Assembly (NCBI GenBank): GCA_963730185.1
Contig: CAVSQW010000004.1
Span: forward strand, 64,001 to 128,000
Direction: 5' to 3'
Length of the DNA: 64,000 nucleotides
Source: an uncultured Gemmatimonadales bacterium
Lineage (GTDB): Bacteria; Gemmatimonadota; Gemmatimonadetes; Gemmatimonadales; GWC2-71-9
The notes below the pieces were generated by a model. That model was not told the origin of the DNA. It saw nothing but the letters and a program-made list of their open reading frames with translations, and made no database searches. Of the stretch, positions 9,636 to 26,343 are shown one piece after another. Position 1 is the stretch's first letter. Each line of letters starts with the position of its first letter. A program made the position numbers and the translations under genes.

Positions 9636-9968
9636 ATGCGCGATCGCCCCTCGCTCCCGCCCCTCTCACACCTCCAGGCGCTGGCCTTGGGCCTGCTCCG
9701 ATCGGGCGACCGACCAGGCCGGTTGGTGCGAGAGGCGATGGCCGGCTACGGCGTTCGCCATTCCGCGGCCGCGTTCTACCAGATGATGGCCCGCCTCGAG
9801 CGCGACGGGTTCGTCACCGGGCGCTACGAGGCGGTCTGGGCCGGCGACCAGGAGGTGACCGAGCGGTGGTACCTGCTGACCGCCGCCGGTGAGCGGGCGT
9901 GGCAGCGCACCCAGGCCTTCTACGAAGCCATCGGCCGGGCAGCCGACGAGGGCTATTCACCTGCCTGA
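9636..9968 (+). CDS. PadR-like winged-helix regulator
   Basis: AAFYQMMARLERDGFV...RWYLLTAAG. Directly precedes an ADOP permease. Confidence 0.8.
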   Translation: MRDRPSLPPLSHLQALALGLLRSGDRPGRLVREAMAGYGVRHSAAAFYQMMARLERDGFVTGRYEAVWAGDQEVTERWYLLTAAGERAWQRTQAFYEAIGRAADEGYSPA

Positions 9969-12624: not shown

Positions 12625-12636
12625 GGCCGCCGCGGG

Positions 12637-13677
12637 TCAGCGGCCGCCGGTGGGTGGCCCGGCCACGACGTCGATCGAGACGCTCCGCCGTCGCTCCGCG
12701 TTGGCGGCGAGCGCGGCGTCATGCTCCCGCTGCCAGCTGGTCCGGAGGGCCTGGTTGGCCGCGAGGTGGGCCGCGGCGGCCCGGCCGGGCTGGCGGGTTA
12801 TGAAACCGATCACCCCGGCCAGGCTCAAGGTGGCGCCCGCGGCGTAGGGAGCCGGACCCAACGAGGTGCCGGAGGAGACCGCGTTGGGAACCACCGCCGC
12901 GAGCAGGCCGGTCGCCAGGCCACCCACCAGAAAGGCGATCGCCGGACCCTGATCGCGCCGTTCGGGGAAGAAGGCCGAGGCCGGGAGCGGGGTGGGGAGG
13001 GGAAGCGTGTCGGCCAGGGCGGCGGAGGCGGTGATCGGGACCGTCACCACCCGGTCGGCCGCCATTCGGGAGCGCGCTCGGATCCGGAGGTCGAAGCGCC
13101 CTCGCGCCGGCGCGCCGCCGGCCGCCCGGCCGTCCCAGGCGACCACGGCGCTGTCGCCGACGGCGCCGGTGTAGATCTCGCGGCCCTCGTCGGCTCCGTC
13201 GGCCGCCGCCAGCGTGACCGTCACGTCCAGGGGCGCGCTGGTGTACACCCGAAGCCGATAGGGATGTCCGGCATCGATCCGAAACGCGGGCGGCGCCGCC
13301 ACTGCGACGTAGTTGCTGGTCCGCCGCACGCCGTCGAACGCCTCGGTCACGGCCGGCGGGAAGATCAGGGCGTTGGGCCGGCTCTTGGGCGAGGTTTCGA
13401 GCGCTTCCCGAAATGCGGCTGCGGCGGCGTCGCGACGGCCGCCGAAGAGCTCCGCCGCGCCAAGGTAGATGAGGATGTCGGCCCGGGCCGAGTCGACCAG
13501 GGCCGCGGGACCGCCCACCGCCAGGCTTTGGCGCAGCAACGTGGCGGCGCTCTGGTATTCCAGGGCGCGATAGGCCGCGAGCCCCTTGGCCGCGAGATCG
13601 CCGGCATCCTGCCCCCAGGCAGGGGCGGCGGCCAGCGCGGTCAGCAAGACGAGCGTCCCGACCAGCCGCCGCATCAC
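12637..13677 (-). CDS. Exported hypothetical protein (TPR-like N-terminus, Ig-like middle, two C-terminal hydrophobic helices)
   Basis: Signal peptide ...AAAPAWG; YLGAAE...AAAAFREAL; VAWDGR. GTGA overlap with the kinase. Confidence 0.7.
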   Translation of the reverse strand: MMRRLVGTLVLLTALAAAPAWGQDAGDLAAKGLAAYRALEYQSAATLLRQSLAVGGPAALVDSARADILIYLGAAELFGGRRDAAAAAFREALETSPKSRPNALIFPPAVTEAFDGVRRTSNYVAVAAPPAFRIDAGHPYRLRVYTSAPLDVTVTLAAADGADEGREIYTGAVGDSAVVAWDGRAAGGAPARGRFDLRIRARSRMAADRVVTVPITASAALADTLPLPTPLPASAFFPERRDQGPAIAFLVGGLATGLLAAVVPNAVSSGTSLGPAPYAAGATLSLAGVIGFITRQPGRAAAAHLAANQALRTSWQREHDAALAANAERRRSVSIDVVAGPPTGGR

Positions 13678-15182
13678 GACGCCGGCTCCAGGATCTGGTC
13701 GATCAGTCGCACCGCCTGGCCGGCCGGCACCACCACCTCGCGCTCGAACGGTGTGAACCCGTCGCGAACGATCCGGAGTCGATGAGTGCCAGCGGTGATC
13801 TCCACGTTGGCCTGGGGCGTGTTACCGATCAGCTTGTCGTCCACGTAAAGCGCTCCCCAGGGCCGCGAGCTCACGAAGAGCCGGCCGGTTTGGGCGTCGG
13901 AGGAAGCCACCCGTCCGGCGGCCGTGGTCTGGCGCGTCGGTTCGGGGCTCGGGCCGGGGCGTTCCGCTCTCGCGGCCGGCCGGGTGGCTGGTGCCGGCGG
14001 CGGTGTCGGCGCGGGCTCGTCGGGCGGCGGCTCGGCCGGGGCCACGGCCATCGTGGCGGTGTCGAGCGCCCCGCTGGTCGAGTCCGAGGCCGGGGCCACC
14101 GCCACCTGTCGACTCAGGCCAGGCTGGCTCCCGTTCGAGCGGAGAAACCAGGCGGCGAGCACCGCGCCGATCACGACCGCTGCGATGATGCCCCCGGTCA
14201 GCAGCGGGCTCCGGCGAGCGGGCGGCGCGTCGGAGACCTCGGGCTCGCCCGGGTCGGGGGGGAACACCAAGGTGTGCTGCGCCAGCGAGGGCGGCTGATG
14301 GCGGTGCGGTGCCCCGCCGGGGGCGGCTGCTCCGGCCAAGGCGGCAGCCAGGCTCCGCGCGAAGGTGCCGATCGTGGGGAACCGGTCGCGCGGGTCGGGG
14401 CTCAGGGCCCGGTTCACCACCCGATGCACGGCCGACGGAAGCTCCGCCGATTCGTCGACGGCGGCCCTGAAGGTCGCAGCGAGGGCGTACTGGTCGGTGG
14501 CCGGACCGGGGTCCCTGCCGGCCAGCTCCTCCGGGGATTCGAACTGCGCTGGCCGGCTCTTGCCGCCGAAGGCCGGAATCCGGTCGAGGATCGGTCCGAC
14601 CGCCAACTCGGTGAGGAGCGCCACCCCGCCGTCGTCGCAGACGATGATGTCGGCCGGACTCAGACTGCCGTGGATCACGTCGCGCCGGTGGGCCTCGTCG
14701 AGGGCATCGGCAGCCTGGCCCACCAACCGGGTTACCCGGTCCGGCGGCAGACGTCCCTGTCCCTGGAGCAGCTCCGCCAACGACTGCCCCCCGGCGAACC
14801 GGGTGGCGTACCAGGCCAGGTTGGCGGTGGTGCCGAAACGGTAGATGGGAACGATGTTGGGGTGATCCAGCGCGTTGACGGCCGCCATGGCACGCCACCA
14901 GCGGTCGGCCTGGCCGGCCCGTTCGATCGGCGCCCGCGACAGGACCCGGAGCGCCAAGGTCACGTCGGGATCGGCGCGACGGGCCACGTAGACGGCCGAG
15001 TGCGGGCTCCGGGCCAGCTCCTCGCCGATCTCGAATTGGGGGGAGAGCTCGTAGTGCACCCAGGCGTCGAGATCGTCCGGCAAAGGCCGATCAGAGGCTG
15101 CCCCGTCCGGCGAGTAGCCGCAACGCGCACACGTCCCCGTCTCCGGTGAGATCTCCTCGGCAGCGCAGAACGGACAGATCAC
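13674..15182 (-). CDS. Ser/Thr kinase-like protein (probable pseudokinase) with N-terminal zinc ribbon, TM helix and C-terminal PEGA domain
   Basis: CPFC...CARC; LDHPNIVPIY; IHGSLSPADI; SPEE; TDQYAL; PRDRF; TM; GRLFVSSRPWGALYVDDKLIGNTP. Confidence 0.85.
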   Translation of the reverse strand: MICPFCAAEEISPETGTCARCGYSPDGAASDRPLPDDLDAWVHYELSPQFEIGEELARSPHSAVYVARRADPDVTLALRVLSRAPIERAGQADRWWRAMAAVNALDHPNIVPIYRFGTTANLAWYATRFAGGQSLAELLQGQGRLPPDRVTRLVGQAADALDEAHRRDVIHGSLSPADIIVCDDGGVALLTELAVGPILDRIPAFGGKSRPAQFESPEELAGRDPGPATDQYALAATFRAAVDESAELPSAVHRVVNRALSPDPRDRFPTIGTFARSLAAALAGAAAPGGAPHRHQPPSLAQHTLVFPPDPGEPEVSDAPPARRSPLLTGGIIAAVVIGAVLAAWFLRSNGSQPGLSRQVAVAPASDSTSGALDTATMAVAPAEPPPDEPAPTPPPAPATRPAARAERPGPSPEPTRQTTAAGRVASSDAQTGRLFVSSRPWGALYVDDKLIGNTPQANVEITAGTHRLRIVRDGFTPFEREVVVPAGQAVRLIDQILEPAS

Positions 15183-15325: not shown

Positions 15326-16030
15326 CTAGTCCCCTCGGGCCAGGTCGGGTACCGGCACCCCGGCGTCGATTCGGGCCACCCGGGCGGCCTCCCCGGCGAT
15401 CCGGCGACGGACGCCGGCCAAGACGTCCTCGGCCCGCTCCCGAGGGACGAAGCAAACCCCGGTGTCGTCCGCCACCACGAGATCCCCTGGGTGGACGGTG
15501 ACCCCGTGGATCGAAACCGCCCCGTTGATGGCCACGGTCCGGAGCCGGTACTTGCCGGTCCGGGGGCTCGGTCCGCGGGCCCAGACCGGGAAGCCGAGCC
15601 GGCGGAGCCCGCCCACGTCCCGCACCGCGCCGTCGACCACCGCGCCGGCTTCGCGCTGCCGCCTGCCGATCCGGGCCGAGATGGCGCCCATGCTGGAGAC
15701 CTCGGGGGCGCCCTGGACAACGAGGACGTCGCCGGGCTCGGCGAGGTTGTGGCATTCCAGATCGCCCATCCGGCTCCCCGGCACCTCCACAGACCCCCGG
15801 AGCTCGGTGGCGACCGTGAGGGCTGGACCGACGATTCGCCCGCCGGCCACCATCGGCACCAGCACGCTGCCCGGCACGGCACCGTCGAGGCCGAGGGCGT
15901 CCAGGACGTCCGAGACCGTGCCGGTCAGGTCGTCGATCGCAAGCAGCTCTCGAAGCAGATCCGCCGGCGGCCGGGGAACCTCGCGAAGCCGGACCATCTC
16001 GGCCGGGAAGAGACCGGTGAGGGGGCGCAT
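15326..16030 (-). CDS. RraA family / HMG-CHA aldolase-like protein
   Basis: VSDVLD, IVGPALTV, GAVVDGAVRD, VHPGDLVVADDTGVCFVP. Confidence 0.88.
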   Translation of the reverse strand: MRPLTGLFPAEMVRLREVPRPPADLLRELLAIDDLTGTVSDVLDALGLDGAVPGSVLVPMVAGGRIVGPALTVATELRGSVEVPGSRMGDLECHNLAEPGDVLVVQGAPEVSSMGAISARIGRRQREAGAVVDGAVRDVGGLRRLGFPVWARGPSPRTGKYRLRTVAINGAVSIHGVTVHPGDLVVADDTGVCFVPRERAEDVLAGVRRRIAGEAARVARIDAGVPVPDLARGD

Positions 16031-16069
16031 GGCAGCGAGGTTACCGCGACGAGGACGGCTTGGCCATGG

Positions 16070-16942
16070 TCACCCTCGGAACCGGGGCTCGGGCAAGCCG
16101 ACGGCGGCGGTCCGGATGGCGAAGAGGGAGCCGGCCAAGGGTTCCCGGGCCAGCTGCTCCGGGGTCAAGCGCTGCCGGGCGGACGTGACGAACAGGGTGT
16201 CGAGTCCGGGGCCGCCGAAAGCGCAGCTGGTCGGGTTCGACACCGGCATGGGAATCACCCGGTCCACTCGACCGGCCGGCGTGTACCGCACCACCCGGCC
16301 GCCGGCATACTCGGCGTTCCAGAGACAGCCGTCGGCATCGACGGCGGAGCCGTCCGGTCGGCCCGGCGCGGCGGTCAGGTCGACCAGCACCCGCGGCGAC
16401 GACGGCACTCCGCGCTCGGCGTCGAAGGCGAAGGCCGAGATCCGATGGCGGTAGGTGTCGGCGAAGTACATGACCCGGGCGTCCGGGCTCCAGGCCAGGC
16501 TGTTGGGCACGATGACGTCGCCGAAGAGTCGGTGGCAAGCGCCGTCGGGGTCGAGCCGGTAGAGCGCGCCCGTGGGATCGCGGCGGACGTCGTTCATCGT
16601 TCCCGCCCAGAAGCGTCCCTGCCGGTCCACCCGGCCGTCGTTGAACCGGTTGTCCGGCTGATCGGCCTCGGGGTCGACGATCGGTTCGAGCATGCCGGTC
16701 TCGGGGTCGAGCCGGTGAAAGCCGTCGGCCATCGCGGCCACGAGTCCCGCCCCCTCGCGGAGCGCGATCGCCCCGACCAGCGACGGCAGGGGCACCCGGC
16801 GCGGCGAGGTGCCGCCGGACTCGATCCACTGGAGCGTGGGACCCCGGGCGTCGACCCAATAGAGGCGGCCGGACCGCTCGCACCACACCGGGCTCTCGCC
16901 CAGCCGATCGGTGCCCGGGACGATCGCGTCGACGGTGGTCAC
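16070..16942 (-). CDS. SMP-30/gluconolactonase/LRE family lactonase
   Basis: LGESPVW, NRFNDGRVD..GRFWAGTM, PNSLAWSPD, PDGSAVDADG, PTSCAFGG. Confidence 0.92.
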   Translation of the reverse strand: MTTVDAIVPGTDRLGESPVWCERSGRLYWVDARGPTLQWIESGGTSPRRVPLPSLVGAIALREGAGLVAAMADGFHRLDPETGMLEPIVDPEADQPDNRFNDGRVDRQGRFWAGTMNDVRRDPTGALYRLDPDGACHRLFGDVIVPNSLAWSPDARVMYFADTYRHRISAFAFDAERGVPSSPRVLVDLTAAPGRPDGSAVDADGCLWNAEYAGGRVVRYTPAGRVDRVIPMPVSNPTSCAFGGPGLDTLFVTSARQRLTPEQLAREPLAGSLFAIRTAAVGLPEPRFRG

Positions 16943-17919
16943 GCCGCCGGTGACCGATAGACCACGTTGCGCGGGGCCTCACCCCGGGCCACCCGATCGA
17001 TGTTGTCGGCGATCTCGGTCCAGCGCCGGTCGATCATCCCCCGGGTCCAGGCCGAGCAGTGCGGGGTCATCAACACGTTGTCGAGCTCGTGGAAGGGAAA
17101 GCGCGAGGGCCTGAGGTCGGGCGCCTCCGGCGTCGGATACCGATACCAGGTGTCGATCACCGCGCCGGCGATGGTGCGATCCACCAGGGCCCGATAGAGC
17201 GCCTCCTCCGCCACGATCGGGCCCCGGGAGACGTTGATCAGCACCGCGGTAGGGCGCATCGCGCGGAAGCTCTCGGCATCGATCAACCCCTCGGTCTCGG
17301 GGCCGAGACCCGACGCCACCACGACGAAGTCGCTCTCGGCGTAGAGGGCGGGCAGGGCGCCGAGGGGGCGGAGCCACGCGAGCCCGGGGGCCGGCCCCAC
17401 CCGCCGGGCGCAGGCCACCACCCGGGCGCCGAAGGCGCGGGCTCGGGGCACGATCGCCCGGCCGATCTGCCCGTAGCCGATCAACCCTACCGTCTTGCCG
17501 CCCAGCTCTTCCCCCAGCGGCCCGCCGGTCCGACCGCCCAAGGCCCAGCTCCCGGCCCGAAAGCTCCGTTCGGCGGCGAGGAACCGGGTGCCGGAGAGCA
17601 GCAGGCTCAAGAGGACGTACTCGGCGACCGCTTCGCCGTGTCCGTAGGCGTTGGCCACCACGGTGCCGGGTGGAAGCCGCCGGACGTCGATCCCATCGTA
17701 ACCCGTGCCGCCCGCCTGTACGAAGCGGAGCCTGGGGGCGGGGGGCATGCCGTCGTCGTAGTGGAGGGTGATCATCAGCTCCGCCGAGGCCAGCGCCTCC
17801 CGCCGGACCGGATCCGGAGCGTCGTCGGGCACCGGGACGATCTCGAGCGGGGTCCGGAGCTTCCCGACCAGGGTCGCGTGTTGCTCGCAGGCGAGCGAGC
17901 CGAGGAGCACGAGCCGCAC
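16939..17919 (-). CDS. D-isomer-specific 2-hydroxyacid dehydrogenase
   Basis: GLIGYGQIG, LINVSRG, AVIDTWY, NVLMTPHCS. Confidence 0.9.
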   Translation of the reverse strand: MRLVLLGSLACEQHATLVGKLRTPLEIVPVPDDAPDPVRREALASAELMITLHYDDGMPPAPRLRFVQAGGTGYDGIDVRRLPPGTVVANAYGHGEAVAEYVLLSLLLSGTRFLAAERSFRAGSWALGGRTGGPLGEELGGKTVGLIGYGQIGRAIVPRARAFGARVVACARRVGPAPGLAWLRPLGALPALYAESDFVVVASGLGPETEGLIDAESFRAMRPTAVLINVSRGPIVAEEALYRALVDRTIAGAVIDTWYRYPTPEAPDLRPSRFPFHELDNVLMTPHCSAWTRGMIDRRWTEIADNIDRVARGEAPRNVVYRSPAA

Positions 17920-17921
17920 GC

Positions 17922-18605
17922 TCAGCCGGCCGGTTCCAGCCGGACCCGACGGCGACCGTCGATGCCGAGGTAGCGGAGGAAGAGGCGGGTCAGCTCGTCG
18001 GCCAGGATCGGGGCGGGGAACGCGGAGCCGCCCGGCCAGCGCTCGTCGAAGAGCACCAGCTCGCGGAGCGTGCTCCGGATGGTCAGGAGCCCGATCTCGA
18101 GCCCCCGCTCCGGATCAGGATGGCGGATCCCGCCGTGGCGAAGCAGGAAGTCGAGCACCCGCGGCGGACCCTCGGCGTTGAGCCGCTCGAGTCGCCTCCG
18201 AAGGCCGGCATCGGTGTGCGACCGGAGGACCAGCGCCCGGCCGGCGCCCCGGGTGGCGTGGTACACCGTCACCAGGTCGTCGAGGTAGGCGCGGAGGGCC
18301 TCGGCCACCGTGGTCCCCTGCCAGCGGGCCGGGTCGGTGGCCCGAGACACCACGCCGAGCACCGCGTCGGTGACCCGCTCCTCGAGCGCCTCGAGCAGGG
18401 CATCCTTGTCGGGGAAGCGAGCGTAGAAGGCGCCGATCGTTACCCCCGCCCGCTCGGCCACCGCGGCGACGCTCACCGCCTCGAAGCTCCGGTCGGCGAG
18501 GAGGGCCTCGGCGGCGTCGAGCATCCGGCGATAGGTCGCCTGGCTCCGGGCCTGTCGGGGGGCCCGGGTGCGCGACCGGCGGCGGGGGCGGCTTGCAGAA
18601 AACAT
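17922..18605 (-). CDS. TetR/AcrR family regulator
   Basis: RQARSQATYRRMLDAA...SVAAVAERAGVTIGAFYARFPDK HTH. Confidence 0.92.
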   Translation of the reverse strand: MFSASRPRRRSRTRAPRQARSQATYRRMLDAAEALLADRSFEAVSVAAVAERAGVTIGAFYARFPDKDALLEALEERVTDAVLGVVSRATDPARWQGTTVAEALRAYLDDLVTVYHATRGAGRALVLRSHTDAGLRRRLERLNAEGPPRVLDFLLRHGGIRHPDPERGLEIGLLTIRSTLRELVLFDERWPGGSAFPAPILADELTRLFLRYLGIDGRRRVRLEPAG

Positions 18606-18647
18606 AGTGAATGCTATGATATTTGATCGAAGCTCCGCATCCGTCAA
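18593..18647. promoter_or_regulatory. Overlapping divergent promoters with a candidate TetR operator
   Basis: Plus strand TTGCAG (18593)-16 nt-TATGAT (18615) with an extended TG; minus strand TTGACG (18647-18642); inverted repeat CATAG-N6-CTATG (18603-18618). AT-rich island. Confidence 0.55.
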
Positions 18648-18653
18648 GAGGCC

Positions 18654-19454
18654 ATGTCCCAGCCGTCGACCATCACTCGGGTCACCCTGCGCCGGGTTGC
18701 CGGCCCGCCGAGCCTCCTCTTGGCCGAGGTCGGTGACGGTCGTTGGACCGGGCTGGCCACCGCGGCGGACCGGCCCGGGCTGGCCGAGGCCGCGGGGCGG
18801 CGGGGGGCCGGGTGGATCGGTCGCTCGGCCGACCACGGACCGGGGCCGGGCGCGATCGGGGGCGACTGGCTCCGCGACGATGCGGACTGGACGGCGTTCG
18901 GGCTGCTTGAATCGGCCCGGCACGATCTGGCCGCCCGCCGGCATGACGTCCCGCTCTGGCGGTGGCTGGGCGGCGCGGTGCGACGAGTGGTGGGGGTGAG
19001 CGGGTCGACGGACGAGCGTCCGGCCGGAGCCGGCGGGCCCCGGGTGGCGGACCCGTCGCGCTGGTCGGAGCTCCAGGGCGACCTGCTGGCCGACCGGGTC
19101 GACGGGCTCAGGGTGGATCCGTTGCGGGCAGGTGGACCCGCCGGGGTGCTCCGGCTCGACGCCATCGCGCGAACCTTCCGGGTCGGGCTCGCGCTCGCCT
19201 CCGGTGCCACCCTGGCCGGCCGGGCGTTGGCGGTTCACCTGGCCATGGCGGCCACGATGGCAAGCCTCCCGCTCGACTGGCCGGACGACGACCCGCCGGA
19301 CCAGGCATGGCTCGGCCCGGCCCGGGCCTATCGGCCCGACGGGGGCCGGGTGACCGCGCCGGAGGCGGCGGGATTGGGGCTCGCGATCGAGGCCGGCCGG
19401 TTGGGGCCGTTGGTAACCGAGCGCTGGTCTCTGGGCGAGGACGACCGCGGGTGA
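18654..19454 (+). CDS. Shortened, degenerate enolase-superfamily (MR/MLE-like) protein
   Basis: Capping domain LLESARHDLAARRHDVPLWRWLGG and C-terminal VTAPEAAGLG are present. Only 266 aa, with no KxK or clear metal-ligand segments. Confidence 0.65.
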   Translation: MSQPSTITRVTLRRVAGPPSLLLAEVGDGRWTGLATAADRPGLAEAAGRRGAGWIGRSADHGPGPGAIGGDWLRDDADWTAFGLLESARHDLAARRHDVPLWRWLGGAVRRVVGVSGSTDERPAGAGGPRVADPSRWSELQGDLLADRVDGLRVDPLRAGGPAGVLRLDAIARTFRVGLALASGATLAGRALAVHLAMAATMASLPLDWPDDDPPDQAWLGPARAYRPDGGRVTAPEAAGLGLAIEAGRLGPLVTERWSLGEDDRG

Positions 19455-20626
19455 GCGGGGCGCTCCGGATCGAGCGGGTGCGGCTCAGCCGGGTGAAGAT
19501 CCCGCTCGCCACCGTGTACGTGAGCTCGATGTACGTGATGCCCGCCACCTGGCGCACGGTGATCGAGGTGGAGGCGGGCGGCGGGTTGGTCGGCCTGGGC
19601 GAAACGCTGGGCACGGACGAGGTCTTCCGCCTGACGGCCGCGCTCGCGAGCCGCTGGATCGGACACGACCCCCTGGACCGGCGCGGGTTGACGGCGAGCT
19701 TCGCCCGCTCGGGCTTCGACAACCGGGCCGGCCGGAACGGGTGGTCGGCGCTGGGGGGGCTCGAGCTGGCCCTCTGGGACCTGGCGGGCCGGGCGTTCGG
19801 GGTGTCGGTCTCGGCCCTCCTGGGTGGGGCGACCCGCGAGCGGGTCGAGCTGGTCTGCCCGATCCCGGCCGTGGCGGTGGAGCGGCCGGTCACCCCGGTG
19901 GAGCTCGACCGTCACCAGGCCGACCTGGGCAACGTGGACCGGGTGGCCGACTGGGCCGAGGCGCAGCGGGAGCAGTCGGGGTTCGGCGCGTTCAAGTACA
20001 AGAGCACCGCCCGGTCGCCGGCGTGGGACGAGGCGGTGATGCGCGCGCTCCGGGCGCGGCTCGGGGCCGAGGCGCGCCTCCGGTTCGATCCCAACGGCGG
20101 GTATCCGCCGGTCGAGGCGATCCGGCTCTGCGATCGCTTGGAGGAGCTGGACCTGGAGTTCTTCGAGGATCCGACCGACGACTTGGAGGGTCTGGCTCGG
20201 CTCCGGCGGCGGGCCCGCACCCCGGTTGCCACCAACATGGCTGTGGTGGAGCCGGCTCATCTGCCCGCGGCGATTCGACGGAAGGCGGTGGACGTGGTGC
20301 TGGCGGACGTCTTCATGTGGGGTGGGGTGGGCCGGTGGCGCGATCTCGTCGCGGTGGCCGACGGTTTCGGGCTCGAGGTCGGGGTCCACAGCCTGTTCGA
20401 GACGGGCGTGGCCACGGCGCTGAACCTCCACCTGGCGGCTGCCCATCCATCCATCCGCCGGGCCAACGACTCGGGCCTCCACCTGATGGGGGCCGACGTC
20501 ACCACCGGGCTCGGCCCGATCGCGAACGGGGCGCTCGGGGTGCCGACCGGCCCGGGACTTGGGGTGACGCTCGACCGGGCCGAGCTCGATCGCTGGACCG
20601 TCGGCCCGGTCACCGTGGTGGACTGA
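19451..20626 (+). CDS. Enolase superfamily, glucarate-dehydratase-related
   Basis: ELALWDLAG, FKYK (KxK), FDPNG / FEDP / ATNM (D-E-N metal ligands), GVHS, VPTGPGLG. GTGA overlap. Confidence 0.85.
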   Translation: MSGALRIERVRLSRVKIPLATVYVSSMYVMPATWRTVIEVEAGGGLVGLGETLGTDEVFRLTAALASRWIGHDPLDRRGLTASFARSGFDNRAGRNGWSALGGLELALWDLAGRAFGVSVSALLGGATRERVELVCPIPAVAVERPVTPVELDRHQADLGNVDRVADWAEAQREQSGFGAFKYKSTARSPAWDEAVMRALRARLGAEARLRFDPNGGYPPVEAIRLCDRLEELDLEFFEDPTDDLEGLARLRRRARTPVATNMAVVEPAHLPAAIRRKAVDVVLADVFMWGGVGRWRDLVAVADGFGLEVGVHSLFETGVATALNLHLAAAHPSIRRANDSGLHLMGADVTTGLGPIANGALGVPTGPGLGVTLDRAELDRWTVGPVTVVD

Positions 20627-20631
20627 CGATC

Positions 20632-21372
20632 ATGGCCGGCCCCGTCTCGACCGTTCCGCCCAGCGATCCCGCGGGGCAGCCCGCCCGGGCCATCGCGGGG
20701 TATCCGCGGAGCCTGGACCGGACCCCTGCCGCCGAGCCGATCCGGCGCTTTCTCTCCCGGGCCGACCTGTTGGGTCCGGCCCGGGTGATCGAGGCCGCGG
20801 CCGTCTCCGTGCTCGACCTGTCCCGGCTCCGCCCCACGGCGCCTCGAGCGCTGGGACAGCTGGTCCGGGTGAGGGGTCGGGTGCTCGACGAGGACGGCCG
20901 ACCCGTCTCGGGCGCGGTGCTCGAGGTGTGGCAGGCCAACGCCGCCGGCAAGTACCTCCATCCCAACGATCCCTCGCCGGTGCCGGTCGATCCCAACTTC
21001 GCCGGGGTGGGGCGGATCGTGGTGGGTCCGGACGGGGGGTTCGAGCTCGTCACCATCAAGCCGGGCGCCTACGCGGTCCCGTACGAGGAACAGGGCGGTG
21101 CCACCGACTGGTGGCGCCCGCCGCACATCCACGTCTCGATCTTCGGGCCCGCCTTCGCGAGCCGGTTGGTGACCCAGGTGTACTTCCCCGGCGAGGTGCT
21201 GAACGAGCGCGACCTCCTGCTCAACAGCATCCCCGACCCGCGGGCTCGGGAGCGGCTGGTGGCCCGGTTCGTCCCGGCGCTCTCGACCGCGACCGGCGGG
21301 TTGGGTTTCGCCCACGACCTGGTGCTCCGAGGCCGCCGCGCGACGCCCTTCGAGCGGGGCGGACATGCCTGA
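20632..21372 (+). CDS. pcaH: Protocatechuate 3,4-dioxygenase-like beta subunit (intradiol)
   Basis: GRVLDEDGRPV, EVWQANAAGKY, DPNFAGVGR, TIKPGAY, WRPPHIH, RLVTQVYF. All four Fe ligands (2 Tyr, 2 His) are present. Confidence 0.85.
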   Translation: MAGPVSTVPPSDPAGQPARAIAGYPRSLDRTPAAEPIRRFLSRADLLGPARVIEAAAVSVLDLSRLRPTAPRALGQLVRVRGRVLDEDGRPVSGAVLEVWQANAAGKYLHPNDPSPVPVDPNFAGVGRIVVGPDGGFELVTIKPGAYAVPYEEQGGATDWWRPPHIHVSIFGPAFASRLVTQVYFPGEVLNERDLLLNSIPDPRARERLVARFVPALSTATGGLGFAHDLVLRGRRATPFERGGHA

Positions 21373-21958
21373 GCTGCGAACGCCGCACCACACCACCGGG
21401 CCCTTCTTCCCGCCGGCCTTCGTGGGCGAGAGCGGAAGTGACCTGACCCGGCACGGCGGACGCGTCGCCGAGGGCACGGTCCTCGAGCTGGCCGGCCGGG
21501 TCCTGGACCGGCGCGGCCGCCCGGCGGTCAACGTGATCCTCGAGCTCTGGCAGGCCGACGCCCGAGGGGTGTTCCACGACCCGGCCGACCCTCGCCACGC
21601 CGAGCGCGACCCGGGCTTCGCGGGCTGGGGGCGGACCTGGACCGACTCGCACGGAGGGTACCGGTTCCGGACGGTGCGGCCGGGGAGCTATCCCGCGCTC
21701 GATGCCGGTGACTGGATCCGCCCGCCGCATCTCCGGCTCCTGGTGCTCGGGTCGGGGCTGATGCGCCCGCTGGTGACGGAGGTGTTCTTCCCCGGCGAGC
21801 CGCTCAACGAAACCGACCGCCATTGGAGCCAGCTCGGGCCGGAGCGCCGGGGCCGCCTGCTCGCGGTGCCGGCGCCCGATGGGTCGAGCGCCGGGGAGCG
21901 GTTCGGATTCGACCTGGTGCTGAGCGGCCCCCACGAGACCCCATTCCTGGACGACTGA
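21365..21958 (+). CDS. pcaG: Protocatechuate 3,4-dioxygenase-like alpha subunit
   Basis: TPHHTTGPFF, ELWQADARG, GFAGWGR, FRTVRPG, ETPFLD. The Fe ligand set is incomplete, as expected for an alpha chain. Confidence 0.82.
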   Translation: MPELRTPHHTTGPFFPPAFVGESGSDLTRHGGRVAEGTVLELAGRVLDRRGRPAVNVILELWQADARGVFHDPADPRHAERDPGFAGWGRTWTDSHGGYRFRTVRPGSYPALDAGDWIRPPHLRLLVLGSGLMRPLVTEVFFPGEPLNETDRHWSQLGPERRGRLLAVPAPDGSSAGERFGFDLVLSGPHETPFLDD

Positions 21959-21972
21959 TCGAGAGAGATGCC

Positions 21973-22338
21973 ATGATCGTCGAGCATCGGACCTACACCC
22001 TGAAGCCGGGCACCCTGAACGAGTACTTCCGCCTCTACCAGTCGGAGGGCCTGCCGATCCAGCGGCGCTACCTCCCCGCGATGGTCGGGTACTACACCAC
22101 CGAGGTCGGTCCGCTGAACCAGGTGATCCACCTCTGGGCTTATCGGACGTTCGAGGAGCGCACGGCCTGCCGGACCGCCATGCGGGCCGACCCGGGTTGG
22201 GCTCCCTATCTCGGCAAGATCCATCCGCTGCTGGTCACGATGGAGAGCAAACTCCTGACCCCGGCGCCCTTCTTCGACGTCGCCTCCCTGATCGAGGCGC
22301 TTTCCGGCACCCCCGCCGGGAAAGGACCCGACGCATGA
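21973..22338 (+). CDS. NIPSNAP family protein
   Basis: MIVEHRTYTLKPG, EVGPLNQVIHLWAY..EER, LLTPAPF. Confidence 0.9.
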   Translation: MIVEHRTYTLKPGTLNEYFRLYQSEGLPIQRRYLPAMVGYYTTEVGPLNQVIHLWAYRTFEERTACRTAMRADPGWAPYLGKIHPLLVTMESKLLTPAPFFDVASLIEALSGTPAGKGPDA

Positions 22339-23852
22339 CCGCCGCTTCCCGAGCCTCGACCCCGGCCCCGCCGGCGCCCGAGCCCACGGGTGCCCGACGG
22401 GGCGCCGACCTCCTGAACCGCCTCCGCGAAGCGCCGCCGGAGCTCTGGTACCGCGGCGAGCGGGTGCCCGACCCGACGGCGCACCCGGCCCTGCGCCGGG
22501 GGCTGGCCTCCCTGGCGGGACTCTACGACCTCCAGTGGGAGGATCCGGACACCATGCTGTTCGACTCGCCGAGCAGCGGACGGAAGGTGGGCCGGTCGTT
22601 CATGATCCCGAGAACCGCCGGCGACCTGGACCGGATCTCCGCCGCGATGAAGCGCTGGGCCGACGCGAGCTTCGGGATGATGGGACGCTCGCCGGACTAC
22701 ATCAACCGGGCGATGACGTCCTACGCCGCCGGCTCGGCGTTTCTGGGCGAGGCCGACCCCCGGTTCGGGGTCAACGCCCGCGCCTATCACGAGTACATCC
22801 GGGAGCGCGACCTCTGCCTCACCCACACCCTGAGCTCGCCCCAGGCCAACCGCTCCCGCCACGCCGCCCAGCAGGCCGACCCGTTCCTGGCGGCCAAGGT
22901 CAAGGAGGAGACCGACGCCGGGATCGTGATCCGAGGTTGCCGGATGCTGGCGACGCTCCCGGTGTCCGACGAAATCATGGTCTTTCCGTCGACCTTCCTC
23001 CGGAACGAGCCGGACCATGAGCCCTATGCCTACGGGGTTTGCATCCCCTCGGCGACGCCCGGGCTCCGGTTCCAGTGTCGGGAGAGCTACGACTACGAGC
23101 GGTCCAGCTACGACCACCCGCTGGCCTCGCGGTTCGAGGAGATGGATGCGGTGGTGATCTTCGACGACGTGTTCGTGCCCTGGGAGCGGGTCTTCCTCTA
23201 TCGCGACATTCCCCGGTGCAACGAGGCGTACGCCCGGACCGGCGCGCTCGCGGCCATGGCGCACCAGGTGGTCGTCAAGAACCTGGCCAAGGCCGAGTAT
23301 CTCATGGGGCTGGCCTCGCTCCTGGTCGACACGATCGCGATCGAGGGCTTTCAGCACGTCCAGGAGAAGCTGGCCGAGATCTGGGTCAACATGGAGACGA
23401 TGCGGGCCTTTCTCCGGGCCTCCCTGGCCGACGCCGAGGTCGACGAGTTCGGGGTGATGCGCCCGGCGTGGGACCCGCTCGACGCGGCCCGGAACCTCCA
23501 TCCCCGGCTCTACCCCCGGATGGTCGAGATCATCCAGCAGCTCGGCGCCGCCGGATTGGTGGCCATGCCCACCGAAGCCGACGTGACCGGGCCGCTCGCC
23601 GCCGACGTCCAACGGTTCTTCCAGGCCGCCCGGGCGGAGGCCCACGAGCGGATCCCGATCTTCCGGCTGGCCTGGGACACGGCGATGTCGGCCTTCGGGT
23701 CGCGGCAGGTGCTCTACGAGCGCTACTTCTTCGGCGATCCGGTTCGGATGGCGGGCGCGCTGGTGGCGAGTCACGACCGGAAACGCTACATGGACCGGGT
23801 GCGCCACTTCCTCGAGCAGTCGCGCGACGAGGCGGCCCGGGCGGCGGGATGA
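22335..23852 (+). CDS. hpaB: 4-hydroxyphenylacetate 3-monooxygenase family, oxygenase component
   Basis: GMMGRSPDY, THTLSSPQANRS, GIVIRG.RMLAT, DHPLASRFEEMDA, FDDVFVPWERVF, RQVLYERYFFGDP. Confidence 0.9.
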   Translation: MTAASRASTPAPPAPEPTGARRGADLLNRLREAPPELWYRGERVPDPTAHPALRRGLASLAGLYDLQWEDPDTMLFDSPSSGRKVGRSFMIPRTAGDLDRISAAMKRWADASFGMMGRSPDYINRAMTSYAAGSAFLGEADPRFGVNARAYHEYIRERDLCLTHTLSSPQANRSRHAAQQADPFLAAKVKEETDAGIVIRGCRMLATLPVSDEIMVFPSTFLRNEPDHEPYAYGVCIPSATPGLRFQCRESYDYERSSYDHPLASRFEEMDAVVIFDDVFVPWERVFLYRDIPRCNEAYARTGALAAMAHQVVVKNLAKAEYLMGLASLLVDTIAIEGFQHVQEKLAEIWVNMETMRAFLRASLADAEVDEFGVMRPAWDPLDAARNLHPRLYPRMVEIIQQLGAAGLVAMPTEADVTGPLAADVQRFFQAARAEAHERIPIFRLAWDTAMSAFGSRQVLYERYFFGDPVRMAGALVASHDRKRYMDRVRHFLEQSRDEAARAAG

Positions 23853-24397
23853 CGATCGACGGCCAGGCCTTCCGCCGGGCGATGGGGCATTTCGCCACCG
23901 GCGTCGGGGTGATCACCGCCGACCGCGAAGGCGCGGTGCGCGCCATGACCGCCAACGCCTTCACGTCGGTCTCGCTCGACCCTCCGCTGGTGCTGGTGGC
24001 CCTGGACCGGCGGACCCGGATGGCCGGATTGCTCGACCCGGGGACGGGATTCGCGGTCAATCTGCTGCGGGAGGACCAGCAGGCCTTGAGCCGGTTCTTC
24101 GCCGGCGCCTGGAAAGAGGCCGCCCGGCCCCCGTTTCGGTTCGTCCCGTTCGCCGGGGGGCCGCGGCTCGAGGGCGCCTCCGCCACGGTCGGCTGCGAGG
24201 TCGACCGGCGCCACGACGGGGGCGATCACTGGCTCGTCGTCGGCCGGGTGCTCGATGTCCACGTCGGGGTGACGCCCCACTACCCGCTGGTCTTTTTCCG
24301 GGGCGAGTACCGGGAGCTGGCCCGGGACCATGTGACCGAAGCGCCGGAGATCGAGCTGGGCGGCGAGTCGGCCCAGGTCTTCTACGAGTCCTGGTAG
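23849..24397 (+). CDS. hpaC: Flavin reductase (HpaC family)
   Basis: FRRAMGHFATGV, MTANAFTSVSLDPPLVLV, GGDH, PLVFFRGEY. Confidence 0.9.
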   Translation: MTIDGQAFRRAMGHFATGVGVITADREGAVRAMTANAFTSVSLDPPLVLVALDRRTRMAGLLDPGTGFAVNLLREDQQALSRFFAGAWKEAARPPFRFVPFAGGPRLEGASATVGCEVDRRHDGGDHWLVVGRVLDVHVGVTPHYPLVFFRGEYRELARDHVTEAPEIELGGESAQVFYESW

Positions 24398-26343
24398 TGG
24401 CCGCCGGTCCGGTCCTGCCCCCGCTGGAGGCCGAATGGCTGGAGGCCGATGGGCTCGGCGGGTTCGCCTCGGGTACCGCCGGCGGCCCGCGGCGGCGGCG
24501 CTACCATGCCCTCCTGCTGACGGCCCTGACGCCGCCGACCGGCCGGGTCGCTCTGGTCGGGGGCTTCGACGCCTGGGTGGAGCGCGACGGCCGGCCACCC
24601 GAGTTTCTGACCGTTCAGCGCTACGTCCCCGACCTGACCTCGCGGACGTTCGATCATCTGGTCGGCTTCGAGTGGGATCCCTGGCCGGCCTGGACGTTCC
24701 GGTTGGCCGACGGACTCGAGATCCGGCAGGAGCTGCTCGCGACCAAGGGCCGGGCCGTGGTGGCGATCCGGTGGCGGCTGCTCCGGAAGCGCGGCGGGAT
24801 CCGGCTGGTGGCTCGGCCGTTCCTGCTGGGTCGCGACGCCCACGCGCTGCACCGAGAGAACCCCGACTTCCGGTTCGATGCCCAGGTCGCCGGCGGCACG
24901 GTGCGCTGGCGGCCGTACGGCTCGCTCCCCGGCGTTCTCAGCCTCCAGAACGGCGTCTATCGCCACGACCCCGTCTGGTACCGGGCCTTTCAGCTCGACG
25001 AGGAGCGGGCCCGGGGACTCGACTTCACGGAAGACGCGGGATCGCCGGGTCGAATCGAGTGGGACCTGTCGGCCGGGCAGGCTGCGTGGGTCCTGGCCGC
25101 CGATGATCCCGCCGGCAAGGCGGAGGGCCTCGACGGGCCGGCCGAGACGATCGTCGCCCGCCTGGTCCGGCGGGAACGAGCCCGCCGGTCGCGCTGGGCC
25201 ACGCCCCTGGTTCGCGCCGCGGACGCCTACCTGGTGGCTCGGGGCGCGGGCCGCTCGATCGTCGCCGGCTATCCCTGGTTCACCGACTGGGGGCGCGACA
25301 CCTTCATCGCGATGCGGGGGCTCTGCCTGGCGACCGGACGTCTGGCCGACGCCCGGTCGATCCTCGGGACCTGGGCGGAGACGGTGTCGGAGGGAATGCT
25401 TCCCAATCGCTTTCCGGACGGCGGCGATCCGGAGTTCAACTCGGTCGACGCCTCCCTCTGGTACGTGGTGGTGGTGGGTGAGGTGCTCGAGGCGCTCGCC
25501 GCGGCCGGCCGGTCGCTCGGGCGGGGCGAGCGCGGGCGCCTGTTGGGGGCGGTGGACGCCATCCTCACCGGCTACGCCAGGGGCACCCGCTACGGAATCC
25601 GGATGGACGAAGACGGCTTGATCGCCGCCGGCGAGCCCGGGGTCCAGTTGACCTGGATGGATGCCAGAGTCGGCGACCGGGTCGTGACCCCCCGGATCGG
25701 GAAGCCGGTCGAGGTCCAGGCGCTCTGGATCGCCGCGCTCCGGGTGGGGCAGGGCCTCGACCGGCGCTGGGGCACCGTCGCCGACCGGGCCACGGCGGCG
25801 TTCGCCGATCGGTTCTTCGATCCCGACCGCGGGGCGCTCCGCGACGTGGTCGACGTCGACCACGTGGCGGGGCGGGTGGACGGCTCGCTCCGGCCCAATC
25901 AGATCTTCGCCGTGGGCGGGCTGCCGGTCCGGCTCTTGGAGCCGGCCCGCGAGGCGGCGGTCGTCGATCTGGTGGAGCGGGAGCTGCTCACCCCGGTCGG
26001 CCTCCGGAGTCTCGGTCCGGCTGAGCCGGGTTACCGGGGCCGATACGAGGGCGGTCCCGCCGAGCGCGACTCGGCCTACCATCAAGGGACCGTCTGGCCC
26101 TGGTTGTTGGGGCCCTTCGTCGAGGCGTGGCTCCGGCGCCGGGGAGCCGGTCCCGCCGAACGGGCGGCGGCCCGGGAGCGGTTTCTCGCGCCCCTTCTGG
26201 CCCATCTCGGTGAGGCCGGACTCGATCACGTTTCGGAGATCGCCGACGGCGAGCCGCCGTTCACGCCGCGAGGCTGCCCGTTCCAGGCCTGGTCGGTGGG
26301 CGAGGCGCTCCGGATCGAGCGCCTGACCCGATCCGGAGCCTGA
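24397..26343 (+). CDS. Amylo-alpha-1,6-glucosidase (glycogen debranching enzyme family)
   Basis: EWLEADGLGGFASGT, AGYPWFTDWGRDT, LTWMDA, RPNQ, AYHQGTVWPWL, GCPFQAWS. Confidence 0.92.
   Translation: MAAGPVLPPLEAEWLEADGLGGFASGTAGGPRRRRYHALLLTALTPPTGRVALVGGFDAWVERDGRPPEFLTVQRYVPDLTSRTFDHLVGFEWDPWPAWTFRLADGLEIRQELLATKGRAVVAIRWRLLRKRGGIRLVARPFLLGRDAHALHRENPDFRFDAQVAGGTVRWRPYGSLPGVLSLQNGVYRHDPVWYRAFQLDEERARGLDFTEDAGSPGRIEWDLSAGQAAWVLAADDPAGKAEGLDGPAETIVARLVRRERARRSRWATPLVRAADAYLVARGAGRSIVAGYPWFTDWGRDTFIAMRGLCLATGRLADARSILGTWAETVSEGMLPNRFPDGGDPEFNSVDASLWYVVVVGEVLEALAAAGRSLGRGERGRLLGAVDAILTGYARGTRYGIRMDEDGLIAAGEPGVQLTWMDARVGDRVVTPRIGKPVEVQALWIAALRVGQGLDRRWGTVADRATAAFADRFFDPDRGALRDVVDVDHVAGRVDGSLRPNQIFAVGGLPVRLLEPAREAAVVDLVERELLTPVGLRSLGPAEPGYRGRYEGGPAERDSAYHQGTVWPWLLGPFVEAWLRRRGAGPAERAAARERFLAPLLAHLGEAGLDHVSEIADGEPPFTPRGCPFQAWSVGEALRIERLTRSGA

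Follow-up and report, generated by a model that had tools for sequence, protein, structure and literature searches.

The genes described here raise the question of which aromatic compound is degraded when a 4-hydroxyphenylacetate-type hydroxylase (HpaBC) is encoded next to an ortho-cleaving dioxygenase, and how the opened ring is broken down further. They lie in a 64,000-nucleotide stretch of DNA (the window) from an uncultured Gemmatimonadales bacterium. Homoprotocatechuate is the standard example of extradiol cleavage. In the part of PMC6375179 available to us, only the meta and homogentisate routes are given as background for 4-hydroxyphenylacetate. In our reading, the cluster probably encodes an ortho route for 4-hydroxyphenylacetate, combining a Thermus-type HpaBC with a divergent intradiol dioxygenase made of two subunits and a set of lower-pathway enzymes that lacks PcaB, PcaC, and PcaD. 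We found no description of this route in the literature searched, and it is apparently undescribed.

Gene content and conservation of the cluster

All eleven genes listed in the first-pass annotation proved to be real, as each is an intact open reading frame with a GC3 of 0.89 to 0.93 and the expected Pfam family (Table 1). Gaps inside each arm range from -8 to +39 nt, and 48 nt separate the two divergent arms. In six relatives, the enzyme genes all run in the same direction under a GntR-like regulator, which shows that the two arms belong to a single unit. The genes of both arms are interleaved in these six relatives, which supports the earlier proposal that they form one co-conserved pathway, in which hydroxylation and ortho cleavage lead into a lower route other than the beta-ketoadipate one. 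One carrier of the block, G302, belongs to another family. The relatives' cassette adjoins the phenylacetate genes paaABCD, and the carrier genomes are 82 to 98% complete.

Table 1. Features of the cluster, with positions in the window
Feature	Position	Strand	Evidence
RraA-like protein	15326..16030	-	PF03737 E 1.6e-28
SMP-30/regucalcin-type lactonase	16070..16942	-	PF08450 E 1.6e-87
D-2-hydroxyacid dehydrogenase	16939..17919	-	PF02826/PF00389
TetR-family regulator	17922..18605	-	PF00440 E 5.4e-16
Palindrome CATAG-N6-CTATG, candidate TetR operator	18603..18618	.	sequence
Eno1, truncated enolase-superfamily protein, 266 aa	18654..19454	+	PF13378 E 6e-11
Eno2, glucarate-dehydratase-like enolase	19451..20626	+	closest structures 2OQH/4DYE E 2e-55
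Intradiol dioxygenase beta subunit (pcaH-like)	20632..21372	+	Dioxygenase_C
Intradiol dioxygenase alpha subunit (pcaG-like)	21365..21958	+	Dioxygenase_C
NIPSNAP protein	21973..22338	+	PF07978 E 5.7e-28
HpaB, Thermus-type 4-hydroxyphenylacetate 3-monooxygenase oxygenase	22335..23852	+	TIGR02309 637.5 > 480.2
HpaC-type flavin reductase	23849..24397	+	PF01613 E 2.9e-38

The absence of HpaD and of the PcaB/C/D partners, first noticed in the window, extends to the whole assembly, which is 81.8% complete. HpaD, HpaF, and HpaH had no match in it and HpaE none over the cut-off. It gave no PcaB over the cut-off, and the same was true for all five carriers tested. By tblastn, PcaC, PobA, sulfomuconolactone hydrolase, and maleylacetate reductase had no match in this assembly, and PcaD retrieved only generic hydrolases with at most 35% identity. 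LigB was found neither in this assembly nor in any of the 22 genus genomes, and none of the eleven genes encodes an amidohydrolase-fold lactonase or hydratase of the LigI/LigJ type.

The hydroxylase and the probable exchange of ring-cleavage routes

HpaB matches the structure 2YYG with an E value of 2.9e-151. Its residues R118, Y122, H164, S219, and T220, equivalent to Arg100, Tyr104, His142, Ser197, and Thr198 of the Thermus enzyme, are invariant in 17/17 sequences, from ortho and meta genomes alike. According to the part of PMC6710988 available to us, Ser197 and Thr198 bind the carboxylate of 4-hydroxyphenylacetate, and these positions are His and Tyr in phenol, nitrophenol, and alkylphenol hydroxylases. 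From these residues, HpaB is likely to hydroxylate 4-hydroxyphenylacetate. The best NCBIfam model for the flavin reductase is HpaC_Thermus, under its cut-off.

HpaB is present over the cut-off in 16 of the 22 genus genomes. Ten of these have HpaD over its cut-off and lack the ortho block, and the other six (6/22 of the genus) contain the Eno2 and RraA orthologues without any HpaD match; HpaD is also unmatched in G302. Seven genes between the dehydrogenase gene and hpaC are lost jointly, exactly where HpaD is present. In all five HpaD loci read, HpaD lies within an hpaE-D-G-G-F-H run, one of which was confirmed gene by gene. Between the ortho and meta sets, HpaB is 70 to 85% identical, and of 516 columns only 2 separate the sets consistently, each by a conservative change. 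HpaD and the block are mutually exclusive, and the substrate residues of HpaB do not vary within or between the two sets; the block therefore probably takes the place of the meta route for homoprotocatechuate. The Fisher p value for this exclusion (1.2e-4) overstates the case, because the exchange may have happened just once in evolution; the HpaB tree requires one ortho/meta change, with a support of only 72/81. The substrate, left open among several phenols in the first-pass annotation, is narrowed by the HpaB residues and the HpaD swap to 4-hydroxyphenylacetate, with phenolsulfonate and 4-hydroxybenzoate disfavored. That 4-hydroxyphenylacetate is the substrate and is degraded by ortho cleavage we hold to be quite probable.

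The intradiol dioxygenase

The assignment as PcaHG can be kept only in part, since this is an intradiol alpha-beta pair with its iron ligands but not a canonical one: the pcaH-like and pcaG-like proteins score under the NCBIfam cut-offs (206.1 < 296.4 for TIGR02422 and 113.5 < 126.25 for TIGR02423). In the beta subunit, the two Tyr and two His iron ligands and the equivalent of Arg457 are Y108, Y147, H165, H167, and R162, invariant in 27/27 sequences. A gap in the HMMER pairwise alignment set Y151 against Tyr447, but position 151 varies and 147 does not. The beta subunit has V149 at the Trp449 position and a loop insertion, and the alpha subunit has S130 at the Arg133 position and F14 at the Tyr16 position. 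We take Trp449 and Arg133 to be the residues that hold the ring carboxylate of protocatechuate. Val and Ser occur jointly in 17 of the 49 parsed dioxygenase pairs and Trp and Arg in 30. The clade of this dioxygenase (support 100/100) includes neither ordinary PcaH nor the sulfocatechol enzyme.

In the genus, pcaB accompanies the canonical Trp-type dioxygenases at 9/9 loci. Nine genus genomes process 4-hydroxybenzoate through a separate canonical pcaHG next to pcaB, with pobA in the fetched stretch for eight of them. Both this and the loss of the alpha-subunit Arg133 disfavor 4-hydroxybenzoate as the substrate.

A proposed lower route without coenzyme A

In the proposed pathway, HpaBC probably converts 4-hydroxyphenylacetate into homoprotocatechuate, which the dioxygenase probably opens between the two hydroxyls to give 3-carboxymethyl-cis,cis-muconate. 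Eno2 would then close the side-chain carboxylate onto the diene, a delta-lactone-forming step for which we know of no precedent, and the SMP-30 enzyme would hydrolyze the delta-lactone to a 2-hydroxy triacid. The dehydrogenase may oxidize this to the 2-oxo acid, recovering the reductant spent by HpaC, after which NIPSNAP or Eno2 would isomerize or hydrate it to 4-hydroxy-4-carboxymethyl-2-oxoadipate. Cleavage by the RraA aldolase would yield pyruvate and 3-oxoglutarate, the latter decarboxylating to acetoacetate. The formulas balance, as adding two waters to the ring-cleavage product and removing 2H gives the sum of pyruvate and 3-oxoglutarate, and the cluster contains one dehydrogenase. The exact order of these steps is tentative. 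The G302 operon contains an extra CoA-acylating (methyl)malonate-semialdehyde dehydrogenase, which pyruvate and 3-oxoglutarate as products do not explain; such a dehydrogenase is present somewhere in the genome of 5/5 carriers tested.

The RraA-like protein, for which 6/22 genus genomes have an orthologue, is predicted from its sequence to be a class II 4-hydroxy-2-oxoacid aldolase acting last. It matches the HMG/CHA aldolase 3NOJ (E 3.3e-14) but stays under the cut-off of the corresponding LigK/GalC model (TIGR02798, 71 < 304.5). RraA-fold class II pyruvate aldolases have a catalytic Arg-Asp within one of two metal-binding motifs. R137 and D138 are invariant in 23/23 aligned relatives, but the protein fits neither motif exactly: the first position of the metal-binding region, A116 here, is Gly, Ala, or Arg among relatives, and the downstream acid is not kept. 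The SMP-30 protein resembles regucalcin (E 3.8e-51), with E16, N101, N147, and D197, presumably the Glu, Asn, Asn, Asp metal site, aligned to identical residues; its identity among carriers is 57 to 66%.

Of the two enolase-family genes reported earlier, both are enolase-like but only Eno2 can be catalytic. Eno1 has enolase-type Atlas matches, and a role as a second active enolase is ruled out by the missing KxK motif and metal ligands, which 5/5 aligned copies lack. As Eno2 homologues of about 600 aa bear N-terminal extensions resembling Eno1, it is predicted to be a partner subunit of Eno2. Eno2 carries the glucarate dehydratase subgroup set of KxK, Asp/Glu/Asn metal ligands, and His-Asp dyad, and K182, K184, D213, N215, E239, N262, D286, H313, and E317 are kept in 113 to 114 of 114 homologues. 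It is not glucarate dehydratase itself (TIGR03247, 99.9 < 828.7), and we predict a cycloisomerase or hydratase. The NIPSNAP gene is present in 7/7 carriers and its product matched only uncharacterized structures; it is predicted to be an isomerase, tautomerase, or hydratase.

The dehydrogenase keeps R232, H287, and GxGxxG, while the usual Glu is replaced within DxWYxYP (15/15). It probably prefers NADP(H), as in reductases, because there is no Asp after the second strand. In 8 of the 10 genomes without the ortho block it is kept with hpaB-hpaC as an intact gene that evolves under purifying selection (median dN/dS 0.21, 28 pairs), and it may therefore lie outside the lower route.

Alternative readings

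One alternative, which we find rather unlikely, is that HpaB adds a second hydroxyl and that ring opening of 3,4,5-trihydroxyphenylacetate by the dioxygenase gives a 2-hydroxymuconate or 2-pyrone. SMP-30, NIPSNAP, Eno2, and RraA would then pair one-to-one with lactonase, tautomerase, hydratase, and aldolase, the formula would balance with the dehydrogenase unused, and the travelling of the dehydrogenase with HpaBC would be accounted for. It would be a subcase of the 4-hydroxyphenylacetate reading, with substrate and end products unchanged. An unrelated Acinetobacter hydroxylase produces the trihydroxy acid, according to the part of PMC10537072 available to us. However, the active-site positions of HpaB are identical in ortho and meta genomes, the accessible portions of the literature consulted report no double hydroxylation for Thermus-type HpaB, and the G302 semialdehyde dehydrogenase stays unexplained unless the extra hydroxyl is at C2. 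The parallel with LigI/LigJ/LigK drawn in the first-pass annotation needs a pyrogallol-type substrate and is not favored, as HpaB has no diagnostic active-site change suggesting a second hydroxylation.

A substrate with an alpha-hydroxy or alpha-oxo side chain (4-hydroxymandelate/phenylglyoxylate or 4-hydroxyphenyllactate/pyruvate), with the dehydrogenase acting upstream together with HpaBC, seems improbable to us. It fits the retention of the dehydrogenase with hpaB-hpaC where the block is missing, an alpha-hydroxy acid would suit the glucarate-dehydratase-like site, and the formula agrees. From dihydroxymandelate, which the accessible part of the literature describes as having been made with E. 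coli HpaBC, the aldolase would release 2-oxoglutarate and malonate semialdehyde, in line with the semialdehyde dehydrogenase of G302 and the other carriers. Yet in sister genomes this HpaB supplies a canonical meta operon for homoprotocatechuate, and the lactate/pyruvate version would give maleylacetate, whereas an Fe-ADH of the maleylacetate reductase type was over the cut-off in none of the six carriers tested, this assembly among them.

Two unrelated neighboring modules, one of HpaBC plus the ortho dioxygenase and the other for sugar acids or polycarboxylates, are very hard to reconcile with the interleaving in the six relatives, the joint loss of the seven genes, and the lack of a transporter among the eleven, even though, among plasmid sequences, the dehydrogenase has its closest relatives in idonate-type clusters and Eno2 and RraA relatives are found elsewhere without this dioxygenase or other ring-cleavage genes. 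We give least credence to a phenolsulfonate route through ortho cleavage of 4-sulfocatechol, as by type II protocatechuate dioxygenases: Val at the Trp449 position is common to the Novosphingobium resinovorum SA1 enzyme of a sulfomuconolactone-hydrolase cluster, and a lactonase is present here, but the SA1 enzyme nests within canonical PcaH, outside the present clade, with Lys at alpha-133 and an extra Arg where Ser and Pro are found here, searches of the assembly for sulfomuconate cycloisomerase, sulfomuconolactone hydrolase, and maleylacetate reductase came up empty, and a sulfite exporter is missing from the eleven genes.

Relation to known pathways

On balance, we favor 4-hydroxyphenylacetate degradation by a third bacterial route, additional to the meta and homogentisate ones, with a dedicated homoprotocatechuate 3,4-dioxygenase from an uncharacterized multi-phylum PcaHG-like clade and a CoA-free lower route that removes the carbon branch by aldol cleavage. 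The homoprotocatechuate meta pathway (HpaBC, HpaD/E/F/G/H/I) shares the Thermus-type HpaB, whose orthologs supply hpaEDGGFH in ten sister genomes, but the extradiol step of that pathway is replaced here by intradiol fission. The beta-ketoadipate pathway shares the alpha-beta subunits, iron ligands, and Arg457 equivalent, whereas the Trp449-to-Val and Arg133-to-Ser changes, loop insertion, separate clade, and low scores, and the lack of pcaB, pcaC, and pobA, set our cluster apart. The SA1 sca cluster shares Val449 and ortho cleavage followed by a lactone hydrolase, but there the Val arose separately, its cationic residues are lacking here, and its fumarase-type cycloisomerase, hydrolase, and maleylacetate reductase were not found.

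The modified ortho pathway for 4-methylcatechol (Mml proteins) also cleaves a carbon-substituted catechol ortho and has an enolase-superfamily step. We take the NIPSNAP fold to be kin to CatC/MmlI, which makes the protein a candidate small alpha/beta-barrel isomerase like that of the Mml pathway. Unlike that pathway, our cluster has a two-subunit PcaHG-type enzyme and not CatA, a glucarate-dehydratase-like enolase and not an MLE-type one, and no CoA-transferase, the route ending with an aldolase. The LigI/LigU/LigJ/LigK route follows a lactonase, isomerase, and hydratase logic similar to that of the cluster. This gallate/protocatechuate 4,5 lower route (with GalB/C/D) likewise ends with an RraA-fold pyruvate aldolase, as stated in the part of PMC5065237 available to us, but here the lactonase and hydratase have other folds, LigB is missing, there is an extra dehydrogenase, and the aldolase is under the LigK cut-off.

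If the proposed route is correct, it would be a further central pathway and an example of how ortho cleavage deals with a carbon substituent that is unable to leave. The annotation "protocatechuate 3,4-dioxygenase" would have to be revised throughout a clade marked by Val449 and Ser133. The route would also give direct enzymatic access to branched muconates and provide first catalytic roles for a NIPSNAP protein and for a glucarate-dehydratase-like enolase whose partner subunit is dead. The natural HpaD swap makes the route testable by a single complementation, and several families without substrates could be assayed together.

Regulation

The divergent layout headed by a TetR gene is present as described earlier but was seen only in this genome. 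The TetR gene had no tblastn match in the relatives' loci, which contain the GntR-like gene, and it represents a local substitution. No site came out of the promoter scan; the palindrome listed in Table 1 overlies an extended -10 element called by eye and is the sole match of its kind in the assembly.

Results

Gene calls and family profiles confirmed that the eleven genes of the cluster are all present, intact and closely packed in two divergent arms, as the first-pass annotation had described, and the source label of their close homologues is Gemmatimonadales. That annotation had also counted two enolases; Eno2 is a complete enzyme, but Eno1 is a truncated copy without catalytic residues. 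Judging from sequence, Eno1 is probably a partner subunit, because homologues of about 600 amino acids carry an Eno1-like extension ahead of Eno2 (a likeness judged by eye, for which blastp gave no link). Folding Eno1 from its single sequence gave no useful model (pLDDT 36). A promoter scan found 0 sites.

The cluster was sought in a genus sample of 22 genomes and in two samples of 401 genomes each, one from the family and one from the phylum. Eno2 occurs in 6 of the 22 genus genomes and RraA in those same 6; G302, from another family, was the sole addition from outside the genus in the two larger samples, and the phylum sample holds three near orthologues of PcaH. The genes had been proposed to form one unit, and the set indeed recurs in six relatives. 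In G147, G126 and G415 it runs in one orientation (hpaB, dehydrogenase, SMP-30, rraA, eno1, eno2, pcaH, pcaG, NIPSNAP, hpaC) and adjoins a divergent GntR-like gene. G413 and G402 have the same order, broken over two contig ends inside rraA. G302 also shares it, except that eno1 is absent and a gene for a CoA-acylating (methyl)malonate-semialdehyde dehydrogenase (TIGR01722, 502 > 448) is inserted, of which its genome has a second copy. The TetR gene and the divergent arms are real in the window, but they are a local rearrangement, since the relatives have a single-orientation cassette with a GntR-like gene. In most relatives paaABCD adjoins the cassette, an adjacency that fits aryl-acetate catabolism but is also inherited; the paa genes of this genome are on a different contig. 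Plasmid searches found no copy of the cluster, and a search for Eno2 that covered 50 of the 80 genomes with PcaH gave 1 match, with no dioxygenase beside it.

Both PcaH and PcaG score below their family cut-offs. The iron ligands and the Arg457 equivalent show no variation in 27 relatives. Val replaces beta Trp449 (numbering of chain 2PCD_M), with a loop insertion, and Ser replaces alpha Arg133; we take 133 to be the alpha residue number and Arg133 and Trp449 to bind the ring carboxylate. Motif pairs could be parsed in 49 of 170 loci (Trp/Arg 30, Val/Ser 17, Tyr/Arg 1, Val/Lys 1), the remaining loci having unmatched patterns or only one subunit. When 63 beta subunits were placed in a tree (every one of the 36 non-Trp rows, plus 27 of the 112 Trp rows), a 34-row clade stood apart from canonical PcaH with support 100/100. 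Nine genomes of the genus encode a canonical Trp-type enzyme, each time adjoining pcaB, which is an internal control. The sulfocatechol reading was rejected: the N. resinovorum SA1 enzyme encoded in the sulfomuconolactone-hydrolase cluster has Val as here, but it nests in canonical PcaH, with Lys133 and an extra Arg against Ser here, whereas the window enzyme belongs to the separate clade.

The usual partners of these enzymes had been noted as missing from the window, and the rest of the assembly (5.27 Mb, 81.8% complete, with a single intradiol pair) bore this out for PcaB, which has no hit over the cut-off, and for PcaC, which has no tblastn match. PobA, sulfomuconolactone hydrolase and maleylacetate reductase likewise gave no tblastn match in this assembly; HpaD, LigB and Fe-ADH were not found in it, nor was HpaE over the cut-off, and HpaF and HpaH gave no match. 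Five carrier genomes that are 90-98% complete have no PcaB, HpaD or Fe-ADH over the cut-off.

HpaB scores over the TIGR02309 cut-off, as it does in 16/22 genus genomes, and retains all five of the residues by which, according to two papers (PMC10537072, PMC6710988), the Thermus enzyme holds 4-hydroxyphenylacetate. Ten of the HpaB genomes have only hpaB, the dehydrogenase and hpaC; 8 of them keep the dehydrogenase intact, G410 has one with an internal deletion and G409 has lost it. HpaD is over the cut-off in 11 of the 22 genomes, namely these ten and G405, in which hpaB was not found, and in 0 of the 6 genus carriers; five genomes have neither HpaD nor the ortho block. The five HpaD loci that were read are hpaE-D-G-G-F-H operons (backed by family scores in G190 and, for three genes, in G401). 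HpaI was over the cut-off in 0 of 4 meta-route genomes tested, with just a 145-148 bit homologue elsewhere. Between the ortho and meta sets, HpaB differs in 2 of 516 columns (I/L and T/A). The simplest reading of these sequences is that both sets would make homoprotocatechuate and open the ring with different enzymes. In the HpaB tree the reduced cassette needs one change (support 72/81), so that this form may have arisen once; the ortho/meta pattern may therefore be one natural experiment rather than sixteen.

Features of the window and of loci examined elsewhere (L, loci; P, Eno2 homologue sequences)
Feature	Location	Observation
Cluster	window 15326-24397	Eleven genes
Left arm flanks	window 9636-15182	PadR-like gene with long ABC permease; Ser/Thr kinase with PEGA domain
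Palindrome	window 18603-18618	Sole occurrence in assembly; overlaps extended -10 element read by eye
Archaeal-type glycogen debranching-like gene	window 24397-26343	One-base overlap with hpaC stop
Secreted multicopper-oxidase-like ORF	window 30101-32269	About 6 kb from cluster; called on His motifs in translation
Eno2 homologue, degenerate enolase-like N-terminal extension	L216:8860-10659	Among other enolases and tricarboxylate-type binding proteins; no dioxygenase
Same	L125:8234-9949	Metagenome; near Val-type PcaHG
Same (P0330, P0360, P0374, P0384)
Eno2 (L107)		Metagenome; near Val-type PcaHG
HpaB fragment (L109)		Metagenome; near Val-type PcaHG
SMP-30 orthologue (56%; L108)	L108:10001-16550	Metagenome; adjoins Val/Ser PcaHG and UbiD-family decarboxylase
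Val-type PcaHG (L001)	L001:2512-11336	Also MarR; Marinibaculum pumilum KCTC 42964 (named, cultured)
Val-type PcaHG, Ile at alpha-133 (L202)	L202:9950-11280	Paracoccus marcusii plasmid, cultured source for clade; sulfatase, two metallo-hydrolases, pcaF, CoA-transferase around it
Reduced cassettes (L235-L244)		gntR-hpaB-dehydrogenase-hpaC, mostly directly upstream of paaABCD; paaE not seen there; 2-oxoacid dehydrogenase E2-like gene follows
Meta operons (L259-L263)		hpaH is last gene

Discussion

The cluster is real and conserved and is likely a third route for 4-hydroxyphenylacetate, assembled from known folds, several of them with putative activities. Titles and abstract openings in the literature, with older and subscription papers largely outside their scope, mention no intradiol homoprotocatechuate route.

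For the lower route, the order of the reactions is proposed on chemical grounds. Aldolases of the RraA fold use a pyruvate enolate to cleave 4-hydroxy-2-oxo acids, and they decarboxylate oxaloacetate (PMC5065237). By formula balance, ortho cleavage of homoprotocatechuate gives C8H8O6, which is one oxidation short of an RraA-type substrate. With two waters added and 2H removed, the formula becomes C8H10O8, which matches either of two product pairs: pyruvate plus 3-oxoglutarate, or 2-oxoglutarate plus malonate semialdehyde. We favor the option in which the cluster's D-2-hydroxyacid dehydrogenase would supply the oxidation, because no change is apparent in HpaB and the dehydrogenase adjoins SMP-30 and rraA in 7 of 7 carriers, among them this genome, in which it lies apart from hpaB. 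Against this, the dehydrogenase is under purifying selection also where the block is lacking (median dN/dS 0.21 over 28 pairs; 0.28 among carriers), its usual Glu is missing, it appears to be specific for NADP(H), and the additional dehydrogenase in G302 suggests that an aldehyde is formed. The oxidation can also come from an alpha-hydroxy side chain of the substrate. A second ring hydroxylation can supply it too, but HpaB appears unchanged. A hydroxyphenyllactate substrate ending in maleylacetate lost weight, as maleylacetate reductase (Fe-ADH) was not found in this genome or the carriers tested.

Members of the Val clade carry the source labels Gemmatimonadota, Alpha- and Betaproteobacteria. 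In a genome-collection scan with PcaH, 78/80 loci lay outside the clade and none of the 80 had the cluster; in a metagenome scan with many short contigs, just 4/80 loci combine a clade member with a high-identity match to a cluster gene. The neighbors of Val-type enzymes also include HMG-CoA lyase, CoA-transferase, acyl-CoA ligase and enoyl-CoA hydratases (L001, on family scores; L002, L121, L122, L126, L129, L131, L135 and L167 in part, by gene calls). This set would be an alternative means of cutting a branched acid, which fits a clade opening catechols with carbon substituents, and these neighborhoods are probably a second undescribed lower route. In the L108 lineage, the UbiD-family gene suggests a decarboxylated catechol as the putative substrate.
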